Shown here piece after piece: positions 7,850 to 43,258 of a DNA stretch of 64,000 nt. Below the pieces are notes generated by a model. That model worked only from the letters and a program-made list of their open reading frames with translations, was not told the DNA's origin and ran no database searches. Origin of the DNA: Patescibacteria group bacterium (lineage in GTDB: Bacteria; Patescibacteriota; Patescibacteriia; JAXHNJ01); NCBI GenBank assembly GCA_034520665.1, contig JAXHNJ010000002.1, forward strand, positions 544,660 to 608,659. Reading direction: 5' to 3'. The position numbers were made by a program, and so were the translations under genes. Within the stretch, counting starts at the first letter, position 1; every line of letters starts with the position of its first letter.

Positions 7850-8470
7850 ATGTTGGAAAATATCACCTGGCTGGGTCAGTCAGGCTTTAAAATAATTACC
7901 AAGTCTGGCAAAACAATTTATATAGATCCCTGGAAGATTTCCGGTGACAGTTCTGAAGCTGACTATATTTTAATTACTCATGAACATTTTGATCATTGTT
8001 CTCCAGAAGATATTGCTAAAATTCGAAAAGAAAAAACAAAAATATTTTGTCCTCATGAATGTATTCAAAAAATAGGCGGACAGGCCAAAAGTGTTAAACC
8101 AGGAAAAGAAATTAAAGAAGAAGAAATTACTATTAAAACTGTGCCGGCTTATAATATTGATAAAGAATACCACCCCAAAGAAAATAATTGGGTCGGTTAT
8201 GTAATTGAAGCTGACGGTCAGAAAATGTATCATGCCGGAGACACTGATTTAATTCCGGAAATGGATGAATTAGAAAATATTGATATAGCTATGCTGCCAG
8301 TTTCCGGCACTTATGTGATGGATAGTCAAGAAGCAGCTCAGGCTATTGCAAGAATAAAGCCCAAAAAAATAATTCCCATGCATTACGGAGAGGTAGTGGG
8401 CAGTTCTGAAGACGCCAGAAAATTAAAAGAAAAATATCCCAAGCGGGTAGAGATTATGGAGAAGGAGTAA
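7850..8470 (+). CDS. MBL-fold metal-dependent hydrolase
   Basis: HEHFDH (HxHxDH) motif and the downstream His/Asp ligands of the metallo-beta-lactamase fold. Confidence 0.75.
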   Translation: MLENITWLGQSGFKIITKSGKTIYIDPWKISGDSSEADYILITHEHFDHCSPEDIAKIRKEKTKIFCPHECIQKIGGQAKSVKPGKEIKEEEITIKTVPAYNIDKEYHPKENNWVGYVIEADGQKMYHAGDTDLIPEMDELENIDIAMLPVSGTYVMDSQEAAQAIARIKPKKIIPMHYGEVVGSSEDARKLKEKYPKRVEIMEKE

Positions 8471-16298: not shown

Positions 16299-16877
16299 TA
16301 AGCGTTGAAAACGTCTAATCGCTTCGCTTGTTGAAGGTGTTCAAGACGCCTTAATATTATTAGAGAATTTTTATCAATTCGTCACGGCTCGGAGCAAACG
16401 GAGCGGAAAAATTTCACTAAAACATTCACAAAGATCTTTCCTCTATAATAGTGGCGTAAAGAAAATAGACCGGACTAAAGTCCGTATGAAAATAATATTT
16501 TCTTTTTTCCTAGCCACTTTCCTGCCCGACAACGGCTTCGCCGTTAGGCGAAGACAGGCGGGAGTGGCGTACTCATGAAATAGAAAATAAGGTTATACCG
16601 ACGCCCCCCTTTTACCACTTCGTCCGATCATTAAAGAGTAGATGTCAGTCGCGACTGACATCTACGGATAGCAGGCCGCATGGAGAAATCCTGTTAAATT
16701 AACCATAAGGTTCTCTCCACTTGGGTCGAGAGGGGATAGTAATGGTTAAACCTTGTCGGCAAACTTTTTTTAGTAAAAGCTCCAAAGGAAAACTTCGCCC
16801 TAAATTATGAAAGGAAAATAGCTGGTTTGCCGTAGGCGCGGATAAAGGCTTGACCCCTTCTTTTCACAAAAGGCGAT

Positions 16878-16909
16878 GGCTTGACCCAGGCTAACTTTAG
16901 CGCTAGAGT
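16878..16909 (+). promoter_or_regulatory. Repeated promoter-like element, copy A: TTGACC-17-TAGAGT
   Basis: GGCTTGACCCAGGCTAACTTTAGCGCTAGAGT. The 28-nt core is near-identical to copy B at 17556-17587. It lies 30 nt upstream of the 16938 gene. Confidence 0.45.
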
Positions 16910-16937
16910 AAAAGAGAAATAATATTCTAAAAATATT

Positions 16938-17498
16938 ATGAATAGAGAAAGAGAAAAAGGAATTGATTTTGAAAAGCAACAAAGGCTTTTTGAAATAGAA
17001 AAAGAAGTGGCAGAGATGGAAGATAATCTGGGCAAAGAAATAGATCCGGGTATCCGCGAAACTTTGGTTTCTGTTAAAGCCCACGATTTACCGACTTCTC
17101 AGTCCTGCGAAGGCCATAATCATCGGGGCGAAGCTTTGCCCTGGATCCAGATAGAAAATCCAGCCCCGGCTGGTTGGGAGGAAGATGATAATAAAAAAGA
17201 GCTTTGGTGCCGGTGGAATAAAAGGGATGCCGATAAATTACAGATTTTATTAGATGAATGGTATGAGGAAAGAAATAAACAGGGGCAAGAAGTTCGAGAT
17301 AAACTAAAATTAGATTTAATGCCAATAAGCCAGTATCAAGCGGTCAGGCTAGAGCCAAAAGCCCAAGCTGAAATTTCCGGTAAAGGCAAAGTTACCAAAA
17401 AAATGAAAAAAGAAAGGGAAAAACAAGACCTTGAGCCTTATAAAAAAGAGATGAAGGATTTTGGGCAGTGGTTAAGAAATAAGTTTTTAGAAGAATAA
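16938..17498 (+). CDS. Hypothetical protein with elevated GC relative to its neighbours
   Basis: 186-aa ORF with no recognisable domain. Its codon usage is more GC-rich than the flanks. Confidence 0.55.
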   Translation: MNREREKGIDFEKQQRLFEIEKEVAEMEDNLGKEIDPGIRETLVSVKAHDLPTSQSCEGHNHRGEALPWIQIENPAPAGWEEDDNKKELWCRWNKRDADKLQILLDEWYEERNKQGQEVRDKLKLDLMPISQYQAVRLEPKAQAEISGKGKVTKKMKKEREKQDLEPYKKEMKDFGQWLRNKFLEE

Positions 17499-17555
17499 TA
17501 TTACACGGCTTTTTAAGGCGGTTTTTGTTTGCTTGCAAGCCGTAGCCTTGGCGAA

Positions 17556-17587
17556 GGCTTGACCCATGCTAACTTTAGCGCTAAACT
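17556..17587 (+). promoter_or_regulatory. Repeated promoter-like element, copy B: TTGACC-17-TAAACT
   Basis: GGCTTGACCCATGCTAACTTTAGCGCTAAACT, about 60 nt upstream of the 17645 gene. Confidence 0.45.
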
Positions 17588-17644
17588 AAAGGGGGTTTAT
17601 TTTTAGCTTTAAACTAAAAAATACTAATTATTAATTCTAATTAA

Positions 17645-17998
17645 ATGGCAATTTTCGACAAATTAAAATCAATAGGAAGTGTTTTAAAAGAGGCAAATAA
17701 AATTGAAGAGTATAAACAAATTATTGAAATTCAACAAGAGTTATTAAATCTTACACAAAAAAATGCGAGTCTAATTGATAAAAATAAAAACTTAAAAGAA
17801 AAACTAAAGCTTAAAGAAAAAATAGTATTTGAATACGACTCTTATTGGACAGTGGAAGAAGGAAGTAAAAAGGGCCCTTACTGTACTGCCTGCTGGGATA
17901 ATAAAAATAAATTAATCAGGTTACAAAGTTCTAAAACTGGATATCGTCGTTGCCCTATTTGTGACAATGTTTTTAATGTTGGTTTTCCAAATCGATAA
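17645..17998 (+). CDS. Hypothetical coiled-coil protein with a C-terminal CxxC...CxxC zinc ribbon
   Basis: CTACWDN...CPICDN motif pair at the C-terminus. Confidence 0.55.
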   Translation: MAIFDKLKSIGSVLKEANKIEEYKQIIEIQQELLNLTQKNASLIDKNKNLKEKLKLKEKIVFEYDSYWTVEEGSKKGPYCTACWDNKNKLIRLQSSKTGYRRCPICDNVFNVGFPNR

Positions 17999-18155
17999 AA
18001 TTAAATTAAAAATTACAATCATCTAGTAAAGCGAGAAAATAAATATGTCTTTAGAAAAAATATATAGTAATTTTATTTTTTATAATATACAGTAGCTTAA
18101 TAACTATTTTAAAAGTAATAAATGGTTAATTGAGTTATTAGCTTTAATTTATGTT

Positions 18156-18527
18156 GTGCAAACATTTTTTTATTCAGCAGATATTGAGAATTTTGATAAT
18201 AATATACTTTCAGCCTTAAAAATTATTTTTTGGATAATTATATTATTAATTTCTTTTTTATTATATATAAAATCCGAAATCTCTATTAGTAGAAAAGAGG
18301 ATAGTTTTAAGACCCCGTTATTGCGAGGGCCGATATTTGTTAAATATGTGTTAAGGGGAATATTTTTTATTATATTTTATACAACCTTAAAATTAGTATG
18401 GGCACAATTAAAAATTAATTATAATAATCATTTTTTAGTATTTTTATGGGTAACTCCAGGCTTTTTATTAATAATTGAGTTTGTAAAATATATTATAAGA
18501 GTAATTAAAAAATATATAAAAAAATAA
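18156..18527 (+). CDS. Small hypothetical membrane protein
   Basis: Two to three hydrophobic helices. Confidence 0.45.
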   Translation: MQTFFYSADIENFDNNILSALKIIFWIIILLISFLLYIKSEISISRKEDSFKTPLLRGPIFVKYVLRGIFFIIFYTTLKLVWAQLKINYNNHFLVFLWVTPGFLLIIEFVKYIIRVIKKYIKK

Positions 18528-18554
18528 AACCTTATCCAGAATTTTTAAAAACAT

Positions 18555-18776
18555 ATGAACCAAGAAGAATTTAGAAAAATTACTCAGGAATATGTAGAAT
18601 TTGAAAAAAAATATAGTGATTGGGTGAGAAATAATGTACCAACATCATGGAGTAATAGGGGTGTCAAAAAGGTAGTTCCAATAACAAAAGAAGTATTAGA
18701 TGAATGGACGAAAATGAAAAGCGTGTTAGAAGAAAAAGAAAAAAAGTTCCATGATGCTGCCTCTGAATTTATTTAA
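18555..18776 (+). CDS. Hypothetical small protein
   Basis: 73-aa ORF in a co-directional cluster. Confidence 0.4.
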   Translation: MNQEEFRKITQEYVEFEKKYSDWVRNNVPTSWSNRGVKKVVPITKEVLDEWTKMKSVLEEKEKKFHDAASEFI

Positions 18777-18908
18777 ACTAGATAAATAGTTTATTATTTA
18801 TATATAAACATGAATTTTTTTATGAGTTTATTTTTGTATTTATGTGAAAAAATATAACTAATTACTAATTATACTAAATATACTAAACTTATTAAGTACT
18901 AATTTTAT

Positions 18909-19715
18909 ATGAATATTGATTATAATGCTTTAAACGTGTATACAGATGGATCTTCTAAGGGTTCTCCACGGGTTGGAGGCATAGGCATTAGATTGGTCTT
19001 TCCTGAATCGTTAAGTAAATCAGATAATGTAAAAAATATTAATGTCCCCGGATATAAAAATGCAACTAATAATCAAATGGAGCTTCAAGCTTGTATTATT
19101 GCCTTAGAAAAAATAATGAAACTTGATGATCTAAAAAAAATTCAAAGAATTGTCATAAATACTGATTCAATGTATGTTGTGGGTAATTATAAAAAAGCTA
19201 TTTGGAATTGGAGTAGAAATAAATGGAAAAAAAGTTCTGGGGGGCCAGTTCTTAATGCGGAGTTGTGGAAACAATTAATTAGAAACATGAAAAAAATTGG
19301 TGTAAGAGTTGATATATATTATGTTAAGGGACACTCAAAAAGTAAACATAATAAAGAAGCAGACAAATTGGCAAAAAAATCAGCTAATAAATGTAGAAAC
19401 AAACAATTAAGTGTCGTTAATCTTAGAAGAAAATTATCTAATAAAAGTGTATTGTTGGGTAGTGTCAAAATGAGTGGACAGAAAATAAAAATAAGGATTA
19501 TTAGCAGTTCCTACTTAAAAACTCAAAGAATAAAAAAATATAAATATGAAGTAATATCAAAAAAAAGTAAATTTTATAAATGCGTTGATCAGATATATGG
19601 AGATAAAAATATTAAAACTCTTCGAGTTGGTCATAGCTACTTGGTAAGTTTAAATAAAAATAATATGTACCCACAAGTATCAAAAGTATTTTGTGATATT
19701 ACTGAAAAAAACTAA
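18909..19715 (+). CDS. RNase HI-family (RNase H-like) protein with a C-terminal extension of about 110 aa and unknown function
   Basis: YTDGS, MELQACIIAL, TDSMYV, KGHS and KEADKLAK follow the RNase HI DEDD active-site order. The C-terminal 110 aa have no match. Confidence 0.75.
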   Translation: MNIDYNALNVYTDGSSKGSPRVGGIGIRLVFPESLSKSDNVKNINVPGYKNATNNQMELQACIIALEKIMKLDDLKKIQRIVINTDSMYVVGNYKKAIWNWSRNKWKKSSGGPVLNAELWKQLIRNMKKIGVRVDIYYVKGHSKSKHNKEADKLAKKSANKCRNKQLSVVNLRRKLSNKSVLLGSVKMSGQKIKIRIISSSYLKTQRIKKYKYEVISKKSKFYKCVDQIYGDKNIKTLRVGHSYLVSLNKNNMYPQVSKVFCDITEKN

Positions 19716-19843
19716 AAAACTTTCTTTCCTAACTCCCCCATTTGACTAATAAAAAAATATATTATACATTTTATAACCAGCTCTTTTTGATATAGCTTTA
19801 TTAATCCATCCTTAACCCCACCCTTAACCTTGGAGGTGTTAAT

Positions 19844-20104
19844 TTGGGCAGGCATAAATCAGTTATAGAAAAAGGTAAGCAAACTCCCGGCCAAGCCGCT
19901 TCGGCCGCCAGAAAGCGACGCAATCAGGCCAGAAATAAAGCGGCTCTTGAAGAAGAAGCCGAAAGACGTGGGCTGACCGTCAGCGAACTTGTTCAGGAAA
20001 AAACCCTGGTCACAAAGAAAATGATTGAGGAAGCAAGGAACAGGGAATTGCAGGAGAGACTAAAAAGGGAAAAGCGCCGAGAATATTATTCTGGCTTGTA
20101 TTAA
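19844..20104 (+). CDS. Small basic hypothetical protein, GC-rich
   Basis: 86-aa ORF at about 50% GC in a 30% GC background. TTG start. A terminator follows. Confidence 0.45.
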   Translation: MGRHKSVIEKGKQTPGQAASAARKRRNQARNKAALEEEAERRGLTVSELVQEKTLVTKKMIEEARNRELQERLKREKRREYYSGLY

Positions 20105-20124
20105 TTTCATCCAAGAAAATCTAT

Positions 20125-20160
20125 AGCGGTTGTCCATCTGGACAATCGCTTTTTTATTTT
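20125..20160. terminator. Bidirectional rho-independent terminator
   Basis: AGCGGTTGTCCA-tct-GGACAATCGCT hairpin followed by TTTTTTATTTTT. Confidence 0.6.
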
Positions 20161-20178
20161 TCTAATTTTTTTTAAATT

Positions 20179-20523
20179 TTATGGTTTATCTTTTACTGGG
20201 AAGTGATTACTATTTTTTGAAATGGAATGGCTCGAAAGTTTTAGAATTTCATTAAAATTATCATTTTCGGCCGCTTTGTTTCGTTTCTCAAAGCCGCAGA
20301 GACTACAGCGATGGACAATAACGTATTCTCCGCTTTTAACCTTCACCCCGACTGGTTCCATCAATCCCTGACAACTTGCCTGGCGGTCACCAGGATTAAT
20401 ATCTACGTGTTTGCTCCAGAGACATTTTGGACAGTGATTGGTGTAACCGCTTCCCTGCACCAAAAATCCGCACCTTTCACAGGTAAAGTTTTCTTTAGTC
20501 CGTTGAAATTTCCGTGTTTTCAT
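20179..20523 (-). CDS. RNHCP-domain zinc-ribbon protein
   Basis: The TNHCPKC motif matches the RNHCP family signature. Further Cys pairs are CERCG and CSLCG. Confidence 0.7.
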   Translation of the reverse strand: MKTRKFQRTKENFTCERCGFLVQGSGYTNHCPKCLWSKHVDINPGDRQASCQGLMEPVGVKVKSGEYVIVHRCSLCGFEKRNKAAENDNFNEILKLSSHSISKNSNHFPVKDKP

Positions 20524-20857
20524 AATAGAATTTACCTCTTTTTTTACTTATCAAATATTTACTTCTGTCTTCTCTTTATCATAATCAGAAAATAAGAGCA
20601 AGGGGAAGGTAAAATAAATAATTAATTTATAAATTTTAAACCAATTTTAACTATTGTGATTTTTTTTTAATAAAAAAAGCCTGACTGAGGTGGTTGGGCT
20701 GGAAGTGAGGGAAGAAAAATACTTCGACTGATTAATTTTTTTATTTTCCCTTCAAGTCTCCTGATTAGAAGTTTTCCATAGTATTTGCTTGCATTTTTTA
20801 TTAAAATATGATAAAATTAGACTGGAATAAGCTTTAAAGGTATAATACAGTACAAAA

Positions 20858-21457
20858 ATGACCAAAAAACCAAGAAAAGGGGAATATTTAGAGATTTTAT
20901 TAAGGTCTCCTAAAACAGTTTTTTCTGTAAAAGAGGCCGCTTTATTATGGCAAGAAGAATGTGAACAAAGAGTTTCGTTGAGATTGAATAAATACACTAA
21001 AGCTGACAAATTAATCAGATTACGTCGTGGTTTCTATGCTAAAGACGAAAACTATGATCGTTTTGAATTAGCCACAAAAATATACACTCCTTCTTATATC
21101 AGCTTTGAGACTGTATTAACCCGAACAGGTATAAATTTTCAGAAATATGAAAGTATTTTTGTGGCCTCGTATGTTACTAGAAATATTGAAGTTGACGGGC
21201 AAAAAATATCTTATATCCGCATAAAGGATTATGTTTTATCGAATATAAAAGGCATAAAAAACCAAAATGGTGTATCTATAGCCACAAAAGAAAGAGCTTT
21301 TTTGGACCGAATTTATATCAGCCAGGAATATCATTTTGATAATTTAAATGTTTTGAACTGGGATAAAGTTTTTCATATTTTGCCAATTTACGGTAACAAA
21401 AAAATGGAAGAAAGGGTGAATAAATATTTCAAAAATTATACAAAATCAAACATATGA
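20858..21457 (+). CDS. AbiEi-like antitoxin / transcriptional regulator (type IV toxin-antitoxin)
   Basis: N-terminal wHTH-like region. It is paired with and overlaps the downstream AbiEii-like nucleotidyltransferase by 4 nt. Confidence 0.55.
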   Translation: MTKKPRKGEYLEILLRSPKTVFSVKEAALLWQEECEQRVSLRLNKYTKADKLIRLRRGFYAKDENYDRFELATKIYTPSYISFETVLTRTGINFQKYESIFVASYVTRNIEVDGQKISYIRIKDYVLSNIKGIKNQNGVSIATKERAFLDRIYISQEYHFDNLNVLNWDKVFHILPIYGNKKMEERVNKYFKNYTKSNI

Positions 21458-22149
21458 GCGTTGATTATGCTAAACATAAAAATATCTTATTGCAGATTCT
21501 AAAAGATATCTATACTGATGTTACTATTGCTTCACACCTGGGATTTAAAGGCGGAACTGCTGCTTACTTGTTTTATGGACTTGACCGGGATTCCTTTGAT
21601 TTAGATTTTGATTTACTGGATGAAAATAAAATAGAAATAATTTTTGAAAAAATTCATAAGATTATAAAAAACTACGGTAAAATCACTTATTCAAAAATAA
21701 AAAGATTTAATTTATTAAAAGTTATTTCATACGATGAAAAATTACAAAACATTAAAATTGAAATCAACCGCAGAAATTTTGGCTCCAGGTATGAATTAAA
21801 AACTCTATTGGGAATTTCCATGCTGGTTATGAAGAAGGAGGATATGTTTGCTCATAAATTAATGGCTATGCAAGAGCGAGTACATAAAACCAGTCGTGAT
21901 ATTTATGATGTCTGGTTTTTTCTAAAGAATAACTGGCCAATCAACCAAAAAATTGTGGAAAAGAGAGCAGAAACCTCCTATAAAGAGAGTTTGCAGAATT
22001 GTGTTAAACAAATAGAAAAAATAAAAAGCCGCGATTTATTGGTTGGCCTGGGCGAATCATTGTCTAAGTCTCAAAAAGACTGGGCTCGTGCTAAATTAAA
22101 ATCAGAAATTATTTTTTTACTAAAAGCCCGACTAAAAAGTGAAAAATAA
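21454..22149 (+). CDS. AbiEii/AbiGii-family nucleotidyltransferase toxin (DUF1814)
   Basis: FKGGTAAYLFYGLDRDSFDLDFDLL matches the family motif LKGGTAL...R.SEDIDF. Confidence 0.75.
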   Translation: MSVDYAKHKNILLQILKDIYTDVTIASHLGFKGGTAAYLFYGLDRDSFDLDFDLLDENKIEIIFEKIHKIIKNYGKITYSKIKRFNLLKVISYDEKLQNIKIEINRRNFGSRYELKTLLGISMLVMKKEDMFAHKLMAMQERVHKTSRDIYDVWFFLKNNWPINQKIVEKRAETSYKESLQNCVKQIEKIKSRDLLVGLGESLSKSQKDWARAKLKSEIIFLLKARLKSEK

Positions 22150-22407
22150 ATTAGGATGAGTACAAAATTAATAAACCCTTGAAAAGAGTATTATTTTAAG
22201 AAATAATATTTTTGTTCCCAAGCCGGTATATTTTAAGAAACAAATGTTGAGCCAGCTAGAAAATAAACAATAAAAAAGGAACTAATAACAAATTTTAAAA
22301 TATTGTGATTAATAAGCCCTGACCTTATCCCTGGGTTTTTTATTTTTACCAAAATAAAAAAGCCCTTTGATATTATCGCCGGGCTCGGGTTTTTAAATCA
22401 AGAGCTA

Positions 22408-22707
22408 TTAGGGGAGGAGAAGCCGGTACCATTCATCGCGAATGTTAGCTTCGATTTCTCCTTTCATTAGCTTGAAAAGAAAGGGAAGATCAGCTTTGAA
22501 AAAAACCTCACTCTCCCTGACTTCTATCCAGCCGCTGATATTTTTGCCTTTGGCCTGAAAGCTAAAAGAACAGGTATAGCCTTGCCAGTTTTCTGAAAGG
22601 TTTTTGATCAGATCCTGGTGTGCTTTGGCCATGGCAGAGAGCAGCAGCTTGGCTTTAGCCAAGACCTCGTCTTTAGTCAGAGAATATGGTAGATGAACTT
22701 CCATCAT
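22408..22707 (-). CDS. PHA_gran_rgn-like small protein (putative polyhydroxyalkanoic acid system protein family)
   Basis: MMEVHLPYSLTKDEVLAKAKLLLSAMAK...ADLPFLFKLMKGEIEANIRDEW follows the family pattern. RBS AAGGAGG. Its start overlaps the upstream gene's stop as TAATG. Confidence 0.5.
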   Translation of the reverse strand: MMEVHLPYSLTKDEVLAKAKLLLSAMAKAHQDLIKNLSENWQGYTCSFSFQAKGKNISGWIEVRESEVFFKADLPFLFKLMKGEIEANIRDEWYRLLLP

Positions 22708-23273
22708 TACCTCCTTTTTCTGATTCTGTAGGCGTCCAAAACAAAGAAAATTGAAGCTAATTGTTGAGCAAAAAGAATCGGATTCGTGCGGGCTAACATC
22801 AGTGCGGCACAGCAGCCGTTCATTAAGATAAACCAAAGGTAACCCTTGAAATTATCCTTAACTCCGAGCAGAAAAGTGCCGATGAGAAATCCCAAAGCCA
22901 GTCCGAGCTCCAAAATTTGCGTGTAGGAGCTTAAGCCTCTGAGTTTGTAGAAACTTAAGCCGATACCGATACTGGTAATAACTAGAGCGATCCAGTAGAA
23001 CCATTTGGGCGGTCTGCCTTTTCTTTTTATAGCTAGGATGAGACCGGTAGCCATAGAAAAAGCGCCAGCCATTTCAACAAAGGCAGCAATAATATCATTG
23101 CCCGTGTAGAGAATATAAACCCAAGCTGGCAGGCCAATTAGGTAAACCGTCCAGGAAAGGATTTTATTAATCCTTTTTTTCTCTTGGTTTTGGCTTCTTT
23201 CGGCTCGTGAAAAAAAGATCTTGTTAGCTAGATAAAAAGCTCCAGCCCAAAGTTTAATCGGAGAAGCAATCAT
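22707..23273 (-). CDS. Hypothetical membrane protein (about 5 TM) co-transcribed with the PHA_gran_rgn-like gene
   Basis: 188-aa hydrophobic ORF. Its stop overlaps the downstream start. Confidence 0.55.
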   Translation of the reverse strand: MIASPIKLWAGAFYLANKIFFSRAERSQNQEKKRINKILSWTVYLIGLPAWVYILYTGNDIIAAFVEMAGAFSMATGLILAIKRKGRPPKWFYWIALVITSIGIGLSFYKLRGLSSYTQILELGLALGFLIGTFLLGVKDNFKGYLWFILMNGCCAALMLARTNPILFAQQLASIFFVLDAYRIRKRR

Positions 23274-23688
23274 TATCTATCCTACTTTCGTTTTAAAAAA
23301 AGAGCTAACCAATTTTTAACTGAATAGCTTAACATGTTATTTTGGGTTTGTCAACTCCGCCTTTCGCGAAAGGCGGATAAAGCCTTTATTAAACTAATTG
23401 TCAGGTTGATGAGTCATGAGGCTTGCTAAGTGGCGTCTATAAATTCTATGATATTCTATCACTCTTCAAAGCTCAGGCTTAAGCCTTTGCCCCTCAGGGT
23501 GACAAGGCTTTGAAATTTGAAAATATATAAAAAACACCTCATTAAAAAAACGGAGTGTTTTTGTTTACAGGCCGTAATTTTGATGAAGGTGTGGTGAGCG
23601 CAGAAGAACTTGTCACCCTACGGGTGATCCGCCTCTGGCGGAAACCCCACTTACTTATTCTTTTTCTATAATCAAATAAATTATTGGT

Positions 23689-23765
23689 GGGCCGTGAGGG
23701 ATTCGAACCCCCGACACCCTGCTTAAGAGGCAGGTGCTCTAACCAGCTGAGCTAACGGCCCATAC
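23689..23765 (-). tRNA. tRNA-Lys (anticodon CTT) with encoded CCA
   Basis: Reverse complement is GGGCCGTTAGCTCAGCTGGTTAGAGCACCTGCCTCTTAAGCAGGGTGTCGGGGGTTCGAATCCCTCACGGCCCACCA. Confidence 0.8.
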
Positions 23766-23794
23766 AGATAATTAAGTCAATATATCGTTTAAAG

Positions 23795-24020
23795 TAAAAG
23801 GAGGAAAGGCGAAGCGGGCCGGTCTACCATTGTCCCTCTTCGGGGGGATCCGCCCTGTCTGCCACAGGCAGGCTCTGGCGGAAGCTATGTGCCCGCGTTT
23901 AAATTTATATTGAATTCCGGCTTTAGACCGAGATCTTCGATCCGTAGGATCGAGACTAACGGTCTATATTTTATTAATAGCCTTTACACGCCGGAACCCT
24001 GAGCAGCGTCGAAGGGTGGA
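23795..24020. ncRNA. Unassigned structured RNA candidate between two tRNAs (strand uncertain)
   Basis: GC-rich with nested stems, a CCCTC-UUCG-GGGGG tetraloop hairpin and GCGGGC...GCCCGC long-range pairing. It shares the 24-nt motif GCGARGCGGGCCGGTCTACCA with the tRNA-Ala locus at 886-910. No ORF. Confidence 0.35.
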
Positions 24021-24025
24021 GGCGT

Positions 24026-24100
24026 GGTGCCCTCGCTAGGATTCGAACCTAGAATTCCAGTTCCGAAGACTGGCGTGTTATCCATTACACTACAAGGGCT
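24026..24100 (-). tRNA. tRNA-Arg (anticodon TCG) with encoded CCA
   Basis: Reverse complement is GCCCTTGTAGTGTAATGGATAACACGCCAGTCTTCGGAACTGGAATTCTAGGTTCGAATCCTAGCGAGGGCACCA. Confidence 0.75.
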
Positions 24101-26369: not shown

Positions 26370-26480
26370 TTATTCGTTATCTTCTTCTTCGCCTTCTTCA
26401 GTTTCTTCTTCTTCTCCGTTTTCTTCAGTTTCTTCTTCTTCATTTTCTTCATTTCCTTCGTCAGTGTTCATATCTTCCAT
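26370..26480 (-). CDS. Small highly acidic protein (36 aa, MEDMNTDEGNEENEEEETEENGEEEETEEGEEEDNE)
   Basis: Strong RBS GGAGGTG 6 nt before the ATG. A perfect terminator hairpin lies immediately downstream. Below the ORF-track size cutoff. Confidence 0.4.
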   Translation of the reverse strand: MEDMNTDEGNEENEEEETEENGEEEETEEGEEEDNE

Positions 26481-26695
26481 GATGACACCTCCTTTCTTTT
26501 TTACTCGCATTTAATTTTTAAAAAGATTTAGTTTAATAAAATCACTGAATTTAAATCAGTGAATTTTATTATTTTGTGCCTTTATACTAGCAGCCAAATT
26601 AGGTCTTGTCAAGGGGGGATGTGGAAAAACTATGTATAAATTTTTTGCTGGGCTAAGATAATTTTAAGGCAAAAATTATCAAAAATAATTTTTAT

Positions 26696-31558: not shown

Positions 31559-32737
31559 TTAAGCAAACATCAACCACTCCGGCTTGATTAGAAGCAATAT
31601 ACCGAGAATGAAAATAATAATTCCACCGATTAATTCAGAAAAACGGGAATATTTGCCGGTCAATCCGGTTACTTTGACTGTTAACATAGCCACAGTAAAG
31701 ATAATCATATCATCAAGCATGAAAATTATAGTGTAGCCGGCTATGTAAAGATAATACTGCCATTTAGGTAAATTACTTAAGGCCAATATTTGAGTATAAA
31801 TGGCTGGCAGGCCAACTGAACAGGCTAACTCAATCAAATTAACTACAAAAGCCAAAACTACTATACCACCTAGGGCGTAAATAAAATTTCTTGATTCAAC
31901 AATATTATTTATTTTATCCATCACTTTTTGGCGCCGTTCGCCTTTAACTACTTTGCATTCCTCGGATCTTTTTTGAATAAATTCTTTTAAGTAATAAAAA
32001 CCAACCCCTAAAGCCAGAACGCCGATAATTATCTGGACAATACGGACATAGCCAATAAAAAGAAACAGATTAAGCCAGGCCGTCATAAAGAGAAAATAAA
32101 CCAAAGCGCTGGCCGCGATAAAGGTCAGGCCGATAGCCCACATGTTTTTCCGGTTTTTCATACCTAAAAGGGCGCTGATTAAAAAAACTAAAACCCACAT
32201 AGCACAGGGGTTAAAACCGTCCACCGCTCCGATGATTAAAGTTAAAACCGGCAGGGAATACTTGGTTAAATCAACTTGACCAAAAAAAGGCAGGTTGTAT
32301 TTTTTTTCAATATGCAGAGCCTGATTAGTATTTTCGTTTTGGTTATTATTAACAGCAGTATTTGTCTGGTTGTTAATATTAGTATTTTCCAGTTCCTCTA
32401 GCTTATAATCAATAAAATTAATAATCGGAGTGTCACCAACAGCATATTGGCTGCCCCAGATCAGCATGGGTACTCCCCGTTCATTATTGGGGATATCGGC
32501 CTGTTCGCAGAATTGGTTAAAGCGGGCCGCATTTTGGCTATTTAAATAAACCTCTCTTTTTTCTATATTAACCTTATCTTCAAGATTGACTTTTTCCATA
32601 TATTCTTCGGCTTTATCACAATGAGGACAGGTGTAACCGTAATAAAAAATAACCTTTTCTTTATCCTGTGCCTGAGCCACAAAGGGTAAAGTTAATAAGA
32701 TTACTAATAAACTAAAAAGTAATATTTTTTTATTCAT
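31559..32737 (-). CDS. Thioredoxin-fold (CxxC) domain fused to a CcdA/DsbD-like transmembrane disulfide transporter
   Basis: Signal peptide, YGYTCPHC thioredoxin motif, and C-terminal TM helices with conserved Cys (FNPCAMW, ELACSVG). Confidence 0.75.
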   Translation of the reverse strand: MNKKILLFSLLVILLTLPFVAQAQDKEKVIFYYGYTCPHCDKAEEYMEKVNLEDKVNIEKREVYLNSQNAARFNQFCEQADIPNNERGVPMLIWGSQYAVGDTPIINFIDYKLEELENTNINNQTNTAVNNNQNENTNQALHIEKKYNLPFFGQVDLTKYSLPVLTLIIGAVDGFNPCAMWVLVFLISALLGMKNRKNMWAIGLTFIAASALVYFLFMTAWLNLFLFIGYVRIVQIIIGVLALGVGFYYLKEFIQKRSEECKVVKGERRQKVMDKINNIVESRNFIYALGGIVVLAFVVNLIELACSVGLPAIYTQILALSNLPKWQYYLYIAGYTIIFMLDDMIIFTVAMLTVKVTGLTGKYSRFSELIGGIIIFILGILLLIKPEWLMFA

Positions 32738-33005
32738 GGATAGAAATAGCCTTTCCTTTAATTATGGCTTCAGAGATTTTTTTATAAGCCGAAGATAAAA
32801 TTCTCTGAAAAGTACTTTGAGAAGTATTCATTTTTTTAGCCGCTTTTTTCTGATCAAACTCTTTAACATTTTTTAGTCTTAGAGCCTCGGCTTCTTCATG
32901 AGTTAATTCTACTACTTTCAAAAAACGCATAGGCACGCCTTGCGGTTTAAAATAAGTAACTTTTGGGTTAAATCTAATTTTTCTATAAAGTTTTGGACGG
33001 GGCAT
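32730..33005 (-). CDS. DUF134 (UPF0251) family putative DNA-binding protein
   Basis: MPRPKLYRKIRFNPKVTYFKP...LTHEEAEALRLKNVKEF...QSTFQRIL matches the DUF134 pattern. Confidence 0.8.
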   Translation of the reverse strand: MPRPKLYRKIRFNPKVTYFKPQGVPMRFLKVVELTHEEAEALRLKNVKEFDQKKAAKKMNTSQSTFQRILSSAYKKISEAIIKGKAISIHE

Positions 33006-42709: not shown

Positions 42710-43114
42710 TTATTTTGGTATTTTTTTGCCGTGCGGGCATTTTTTTGGATTTTTTAAAATTTTTTCTAATTTTTTAATCGATAAATCAGAAAAAGCATGC
42801 TCCAAATGATGTGCTTCTTGGTGAATATTTTCATTTTTCAGACCCAAAGATTTTTTTAAGAAAACTTCGATTAAACGATGACGACGAGTGATTTCTTTAG
42901 CTTTGACTAAACCTTTTTTAGTTAAATTTACGGTGCCGTAAGGCTTTTTATTAATATATTTTTTTTGCTGTAGCTTATTTAACATAGCTGAAACTGAAGG
43001 CTTGGATATATTTAAATAATCAGCTATTTTTTTAGAATGAATATTTTTATCTTTTTCCCAGAGAATATAAAGGGTGCGTAAATAATCTTCCTGGCTTTGT
43101 TTTTGTCTTTTCAT
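42710..43114 (-). CDS. DtxR/MntR-family metal-dependent transcriptional repressor
   Basis: N-terminal wHTH (IADYLNISKPSVSAMLNKL) and a dimerisation/metal-binding helix (RHRLIEVFL...HQEAHHLEH). Confidence 0.85.
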   Translation of the reverse strand: MKRQKQSQEDYLRTLYILWEKDKNIHSKKIADYLNISKPSVSAMLNKLQQKKYINKKPYGTVNLTKKGLVKAKEITRRHRLIEVFLKKSLGLKNENIHQEAHHLEHAFSDLSIKKLEKILKNPKKCPHGKKIPK

Positions 43115-43258
43115 AAAAAATGTTAGTTATAACTAACTTTAATAATAGACTATTAAATTAATTATGTAAATTACTTTTTTGGGGATAAATAACCTCTTTA
43201 TTATAATATTAATAAATGTTATTATATTTATTGGCTAATAATTAATTTTTAAAAAAAT

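Follow-up and report, generated by a model that had tools for sequence, protein, structure and literature searches.

A duplicated, strongly conserved promoter-like element on either side of a Patescibacteria gene at the edge of a variable region

The repeated element and its locus

We analysed a 64,000-nucleotide (nt) stretch of Patescibacteria DNA (contig JAXHNJ010000002.1 of assembly GCA_034520665.1, positions 544,660 to 608,659), called the window throughout, in which a short promoter-like element occurs twice. The first occurrence (copy 1) lies upstream of a gene for a 186-amino-acid (aa) protein, and the second (copy 2) lies between this gene and a gene for a 117-aa protein that heads a region of accessory genes. 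The 186-aa gene is carried on a 698-kb contig of a metagenome-assembled genome (MAG) and follows the genes for RNase Y, YmdB and HU, a gene order that is also kept in two other lineages (L002 and the L003-L008 group). Coordinates of the features are collected in Table 1.

The core of the repeat is a 28-mer, GGCTTGACCCAKGCTAACTTTAGCGCTA, with exact matches at 16878-16905 and 17556-17583, and no third site was observed in the window when up to three mismatches were allowed. None of 100 dinucleotide shuffles contained a match (chance expectation 0), which bears out a preliminary description of this DNA that had reported a duplicated promoter-like 28-mer at 16878 and 17556. The similarity extends to 41 nt with 90% identity (16872-16912 versus 17550-17590), and the copies are 678 bp apart, a distance equal to the unit of element plus gene. 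The same description had placed each copy 30-60 nt upstream of a gene, which is roughly right, as we measured 33 nt for copy 1 (16905 to the ATG at 16938) and 62 nt for copy 2 (17583 to the ATG at 17645). An identical arrangement (100% identity) was found in a separately assembled Logan contig (L001), possibly derived from the same reads. A degenerate echo of the copy 2 -10 region was also observed at 17599-17619 (ATTTTTAGCTTTAAACTAAAA versus AACTTTAGCGCTAAACTAAAG, 76% identity), 28 nt downstream and within the predicted leader of the 117-aa gene. Neither gene behind the copies has a Shine-Dalgarno sequence (16910-16940 and 17588-17647), while several other genes in the window have AGGAGG-type sites.

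Table 1. Features of the locus, with nucleotide identity to the L002 relative where compared.
Feature	Positions	Strand	Basis or description	Identity, window vs L002
Decayed upstream module of copy 1, with orphan -35 TTGACC at 16850-16855	16821-16858	+	by-eye alignment	
Copy 1 core (E1), GGCGATGGC	16872-16912	+	repeat alignment and hexamer pattern	
Copy 1 -35, TTGACC	16881-16886	+		
Copy 1 spacer, 17 nt	16887-16903	+		
Copy 1 -10, TAGAGT	16904-16909	+		
186-aa gene, U5L76_05150, function not assigned	16938-17498	+	conserved Patescibacteria protein	77.7%
Copy 2 (E2), full 78-nt element	17514-17591	+	aligned to L002 2156-2233	76/78 (97%)
Copy 2 T-tract	17520-17532	+		
Copy 2 imperfect dyad, 26 bp, CAAGCCGTAGCCTTGGCGAAGGCTTG	17536-17561	+		
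Copy 2 -35, TTGACC	17559-17564	+		
Copy 2 spacer	17565-17581	+		
Overlapping palindromes, spacer and -10 of copy 2	17568-17585	+		
Copy 2 -10, TAAACT	17582-17587	+		
117-aa coiled-coil and zinc-ribbon gene, first cargo gene	17645-17998	+		
Hypervariable accessory region, copy 2 to tRNA-Lys	17592-23684	.	gene content differs between window, L002 and L003	
YmdB gene				82.7%
HU gene				87.5%
Other intergenic DNA				about 77-86%

Promoter architecture across five copies

Both window copies have the form TTGACC-17-TAnnnT, the same architecture as the other intergenic TTGACN-17-TAnnnT sites of this genome, which are sigma-70-like with spacers that are usually AT-rich. To these two copies (W1 and W2) we aligned two from L002 (L002_1 and L002_2) and one from L003 (L003_1), giving five copies from three lineages. 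Each lies on the same strand as its downstream gene, with the end of the -10 located 15-58 nt before the ATG (28 and 58 nt for the window copies). The 17-nt spacing, the string GCTTGAC, and the T-12, A-11 and T-7 positions of the -10 are invariant, while the middle three positions of the -10 vary freely (TAGAGT, TAAACT, TAAGGT, TATGGT). Invariant T-12, A-11 and T-7 with a variable middle is the pattern expected of a working sigma-70 -10. The invariant alignment positions as a whole read GGC.A..GCTTGAC followed by C...CTTT.GCGCTA...T.AA, and cover the -35, the proximal spacer and the three fixed -10 positions. The promoter interpretation of the preliminary description therefore gains from this comparison, since the hexamers and their spacing match the genome's other sites and are retained in all five copies. 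From these positions, transcript starts are predicted near 16916 for copy 1 and near 17594 for copy 2. The L003 copy has most of its spacer changed but retains hexamers and spacing, and thus the basal promoter and the spacer module are separable.

A partial third copy had been placed at 16843. Such a copy exists, spanning about 16845-16861, and includes a third occurrence of GGCTTGACC at 16847-16855 (0.15 expected by chance), although we read it as a part of copy 1. The stretch GCTGG..GCCGTAG..AAAGGCTTGACC aligns by eye with copy 1 of L002 and with copy 2 of the window (GCTGGCAAGCCRTAGCCTTGGCRAAGGCTTGACC), and the upstream-module pattern common to the other copies is GCTGG..GCCGTAG..AAGGCTTGACC. 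Because its counterpart in those copies is this upstream module, the partial copy would be the original -35 module of copy 1, now decayed, which lies 31 nt upstream and which in our reading was orphaned by a 31-nt internal duplication or insertion. No TAnnnT was found 16-18 nt downstream of the orphan -35. Copy 1 of the window thus retains only the proximal 41 nt.

Conservation of the element in related lineages

The 186-aa protein shares 72% identity with its L002 counterpart and 68% with those of the L003-L008 group. By this synteny the 186-aa gene is assigned to the conserved backbone and not to an island, so that the preliminary description of two consecutive island genes holds for one side only, the variable region starting after copy 2. 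L002 carries both copies at the same positions as a 66-78-nt element, and its two copies are 94% identical to each other over 66 nt. The L003 group has only the upstream copy, whose upstream module is identical at 29 of 30 positions and whose spacer mostly differs; downstream of its 186-aa gene we observed a terminator and then an unrelated TTGACC-17-TAGACT site. Copy 1 of the window is orthologous to L002 1522-1560 and L003 9930-9966.

In a sliding-window comparison with L002, copy 2 formed a sharp 98% peak between flanks of 60-88%. Its spacer and the 45 nt upstream are 97% conserved versus 78-88% for the flanking genes, and two or fewer differences in 78 nt at 20% divergence have a binomial probability below 1e-5. 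Both differences from L002 fall outside the hexamers and dyads. A control promoter (window 26584-26612, minus strand) kept its hexamers and leader in L002 but only about half of its spacer (our count from the alignment), and conservation of spacer and upstream module in the element is therefore unusual.

Such identity bears on whether the repeat has any function. As a functionless leftover of tandem duplication or gene conversion in intergenic DNA, the repeat would agree with the 678-bp unit, which resembles one tandem-duplication period, with the 31-nt internal duplication in copy 1, and with the base following TTGACC, which is C in both window copies and T in both L002 copies and so hints at concerted evolution. 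Neutral DNA is however not expected at 97% identity beside genes at 78-88% and other intergenic DNA at about 77-86%, nor does drift readily fit the retention of both copies in two lineages, and we consider this explanation quite unlikely.

The conserved 78 nt could also act as RNA, as an untranslated-region element or small RNA that the 186-aa transcript carries at its 5' and its 3' end and that serves, for example, as a stability, processing or translation signal. Conservation does span the whole element and not the hexamers alone, a 6-bp hairpin (AGCCUU-GGCG-AAGGCU) can form, and both downstream genes, unlike other genes in the window, have no Shine-Dalgarno sequence. Yet the predicted folds of either strand were no better than those of shuffled sequences (z of -0.2 to -1.3, and +1.35 for copy 1) and differed between copies, and the consensus fold was weak (-7.4 kcal/mol) with a positive covariation term, that is, a penalty. 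The hairpin is broken in L003 and in copy 1, and no Rfam match was found for the element at E up to 10, leaving a role as RNA very unlikely in our estimation.

Candidate operators and regulators

The conserved portions of copy 2 contain two kinds of symmetry. The final three bases of the 26-bp dyad CAAGCCGTAGCCTTGGCGAAGGCTTG, which is unique within the window, are the first three of the -35, while the overlapping palindromes comprise GCTAA-CT-TTAGC (17568-17579) and TTTAGCGCTAAA (17574-17585), the latter running into the -10. The equivalent site in copy 1 lies at 16890-16907, and in copy 1 of L002 the same site is an 18/20 palindrome (TAACTTTAGCGCTAAGGTTA). A 10-of-13 dyad together with a perfect 6+6 palindrome occurred in 0.4% of shuffles of the element, making its dyad symmetry moderately non-random. 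The dyad over the -35 and the palindromes across the spacer and -10 are probably operators. The idea that the spacer may embed a regulator site, raised in the preliminary description, is accordingly plausible and somewhat strengthened by the 97% conservation and the dyads, although no cognate protein could be tied to the element.

Two regulators encoded in the window had been proposed as that cognate protein, and neither proposal was sustained. The DtxR-like gene (42710-43114) precedes feoA/feoB and has its own perfect 16-bp palindrome, GTTAGTTATAACTAAC, at 43121-43136 within a minus-strand promoter, likely an autoregulatory metal-repressor box. The arms of the element (CTAAC-T-TTTAG-CG-CTAAA) differ from this box in order and spacing. 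An iron box of the DtxR/IdeR type has a 19-bp palindromic consensus of the TTAGGTTAGCCTAACCTAA type, and the element does not conform to it, its arms again differing in order and spacing. Nothing was found to link the DUF134 gene (32730-33005) to the element. A MerR-type operator, which consists of a dyad within an over-long spacer of 19-20 bp, does not agree with the 17-nt spacer of every copy.

The 186-aa protein was considered as a possible autoregulator, but our searches gave no family, PDB-sequence or structural match and nothing that points to DNA binding. Its family was observed only on Patescibacteria-type contigs and has an invariant SCEGH motif. No sequence match was found in Pfam, NCBIfam, PHROG, PADLOC or the PDB, and its AlphaFold model (predicted local distance difference test score, pLDDT, 83; predicted template modelling score, pTM, 0.80) has no fold neighbour in the PDB. 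The 186-aa and 117-aa proteins show no similarity to each other (E = 5.9). Two distant homologues of the 186-aa protein (L013 and L014) are encoded inside operons and have no upstream region of their own.

The variable region downstream of copy 2

Beyond the copy 2 -10, the window and L002 remain similar for only a few bases, and by gene content copy 2 forms the left edge of a hypervariable region. The 117-aa gene, presumably driven by copy 2, has no relation to the 180-aa gene found behind copy 2 in L002. Between copy 2 and the tRNA-Lys/tRNA-Arg genes, the window and L002 have only an 86-aa gene (19844-20104) in common, and L003 contains yet another gene set. The window cargo at 20858-22149 and 18909-20523 includes an AbiEi/AbiEii abortive-infection pair (E = 3e-55 and 3e-71), a 268-aa RNase H fusion and an RNHCP-domain gene, and the GC content is low (22.7% at 18-19 kb), so that the region looks like a small defence or accessory island. 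Some of the cargo genes have promoter-like sites of their own (e.g. 19742-19770) and some lie on the opposite strand. The right border is formed by a tRNA-Lys(CTT)/tRNA-Arg(TCG) pair (window 23685-24099, L002 5508-5680, L003 12631-12833), whose orientation in L002 is opposite to that in the window and in L003. In other genomes, homologues of the 117-aa gene have methyltransferase, Fic, RadC and helicase genes as neighbours, and the element is missing in front of them. The promoter is thus resident and did not arrive with the cargo, and an origin in which it travelled with the 117-aa gene was rejected.

A border this abrupt could instead mark a recombination or docking site, the 78 nt being an attachment-type site or a homologous-recombination anchor for the exchange of accessory genes, with the direct repeats making the 186-aa gene an excisable cassette and the promoter-like hexamers incidental or an added function. 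The unrelated cargo that begins within a few bases of the element would fit, as would its inverted-repeat arms, the tRNA pair at the right border with its inversion in L002, and a 186-aa homologue (62% identity) that L009 carries in another accessory setting, one that includes Gp49/HTH and Fic genes. The called genes of the window region, L002 and L003 include however no integrase or recombinase, and we found no att-like partial copy of the element at the far border or from one cargo gene to the next. In the L003 lineage the same hot spot of variation exists although copy 2 is missing, the L009 locus does not contain the element, and the hexamer-specific conservation is explained by a promoter and not by a crossover site. 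We regard a recombination site as unlikely.

Dispersal of the element

No further copies of the element were observed in the window or in 20 fetched loci. Public collections were scanned with exact patterns (a 24-nt motif, the invariant core and the upstream module). The invariant-core scan of 185,579 GTDB species genomes returned one match, a single copy in the MAG of the L003 relative, while an earlier and stricter genome scan returned none. There were also no matches among viral contigs or in two metagenome scans, the latter not being exhaustive since the collection missed the known L002 copy. Terminal inverted repeats and target duplications were not found at the element.

These results bear on the suggestion that the repeat is a mobile promoter cassette, or a miniature mobile element with an outward promoter, inserted before two genes. 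Highly similar upstream DNA does precede non-homologous genes here, and the L002 pair resembles the criteria for putative mobile promoters, namely at least 80% identity over at least 50 nt upstream of non-paralogous genes (Matus-Garcia, Nijveen and van Passel 2012; PMC3575422). The confinement of the element to this locus across the collections above, the lack of terminal inverted repeats or target duplications, and the 117-aa homologues that occur elsewhere without it all speak against insertion. In addition, the copies occupy orthologous positions in the different lineages, which makes the duplication an old and local one and also counts against a cassette. We therefore consider the suggestion highly improbable.

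Neighbouring non-coding structures

Other structured non-coding DNA was also observed in the window. Just upstream of copy 1, the window contains a GC-rich, strongly structured stretch (16500-16800; fold z of -3.8 for the plus and -3.4 for the minus strand) that has no Rfam match and includes a perfect 28-bp palindrome, which forms a hairpin at 16638-16665. Its homologue in L002 (5230-5404) lies in the opposite orientation on the other side of the variable region, beside the tRNAs, and in its hairpin a compensatory change from A-T to C-G has left the palindrome perfect. Neither L002 nor L003 has the stretch in the spacer between its HU and 186-aa genes, and in L003 no copy turned up at any position. 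It could be a small RNA or a small mobile structured element.

Around the tRNA genes of the window, hairpin-rich and GC-rich non-coding DNA was also observed (23380-23680 and 23790-24020), with no Rfam match. A further stretch (window 26440-26612, minus strand; L002 about 8090-8260) comprises a promoter and a long leader before a small acidic open reading frame. Over roughly 85 nt it is about 96% conserved with L002. The hairpin AATCACTGAATTTAAATCAGTGATT belongs to the conserved part, the spacer of the promoter has diverged, and the stretch may be a conserved leader or regulatory RNA.

Discussion

We propose, with a probability of about 0.6, that the repeat is a locus-specific, locally duplicated promoter region of the housekeeping-sigma (sigma-70/SigA) type, in which the extra conservation most likely represents operators that would couple both transcription units. 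The local duplication would have taken place at the latest in the ancestor that the window genome shares with L002. In this model TTGACC and TAnnnT, 17 nt apart, are the sites recognised by RNA polymerase holoenzyme; copy 1 (-35 at 16881, -10 at 16904) would start the mRNA of the 186-aa gene and copy 2 (-35 at 17559, -10 at 17582) would drive whatever gene heads the accessory region, the 117-aa gene here and an unrelated 180-aa gene in L002. The conserved dyad and palindromes may serve as operators for one or two dimeric DNA-binding proteins, which would occlude or activate both promoters and in this way co-regulate the two units.

Several observations weigh against this proposal or against parts of it. 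Promoter activity is read here from sequence, both -10 boxes match the consensus at only four of six positions, and the comparison covers only three lineages. Known promoter-plus-operator designs do not strictly need conservation over all 78 nt, which here takes in even a T-tract lying 25-40 nt upstream of the -35. Copy 1 of the window is without the left half of the upstream dyad, which indicates that the upstream module is not essential there. Matches to the palindromes and dyad elsewhere in the 64 kb were at chance level or confined to the two known sites, giving no regulon signal. The DtxR-like regulator has a different palindrome before its own operon, and no DNA-binding fold is evident in the model of the 186-aa protein.

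An extension of this proposal is an expression dock at the edge of the accessory hot spot, in which a resident, tightly regulated promoter doubles as the fixed left anchor for swapped, unrelated, defence-related genes that would be expressed without promoters of their own. We consider this extension speculative and unlikely. If true, it would be an integrase-less functional analogue of the integron Pc-attI platform in a reduced Patescibacteria genome, and the binding of a regulator together with an anchoring role in recombination would account for the dense conservation.

To our knowledge, there is almost no experimental work on the promoters and regulators of Patescibacteria (the Candidate Phyla Radiation, CPR), whose members are uncultured and have very few transcription factors, and we found no usable promoter maps for them in the literature. 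A 78-nt non-coding element that is kept more strictly than the adjacent HU gene is a concrete candidate for a regulated Patescibacteria promoter, and one that can be tested. The locus also provides a clean example of newly acquired accessory genes placed behind a resident promoter.

The element shares features with several known systems. Like putative mobile promoters it consists of similar upstream DNA before non-paralogous genes in one genome, and the L002 pair exceeds the 50-nt length used to define them, but the 41 nt of the window pair fall short of it, and the copies are adjacent, orthologous across lineages and present nowhere else, with no sign of mobility. With the promoter-bearing miniature repeats of the Correia, ERIC and REPIN types it has in common that a short intergenic sequence able to act as a promoter is repeated; unlike them it is not dispersed, being found in two to three copies at one locus, and has neither terminal inverted repeats nor a target-site duplication. 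As in the integron Pc and attI platform, a resident promoter stands at the border of genes exchanged between genomes. The locus differs from that platform in having no integrase and no attC-like repeats between cargo genes (no repeat family was found there), and in that some cargo genes possess promoter-like sites of their own or lie on the opposite strand. The remaining comparison is with sigma-70/SigA promoters that have overlapping operators, which the element resembles in its hexamers and 17-nt spacing, in its location shortly upstream of genes on the same strand and, as in repressor-controlled promoters, in dyads that overlap the -35 and -10. It differs from these in being conserved over 78 contiguous nt, including the far-upstream T-tract, and in having a putative operator that is shared by no other gene in the sequence examined. 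By these comparisons the element is an ordinary kind of feature that is unusually well conserved, and not a new kind of system.

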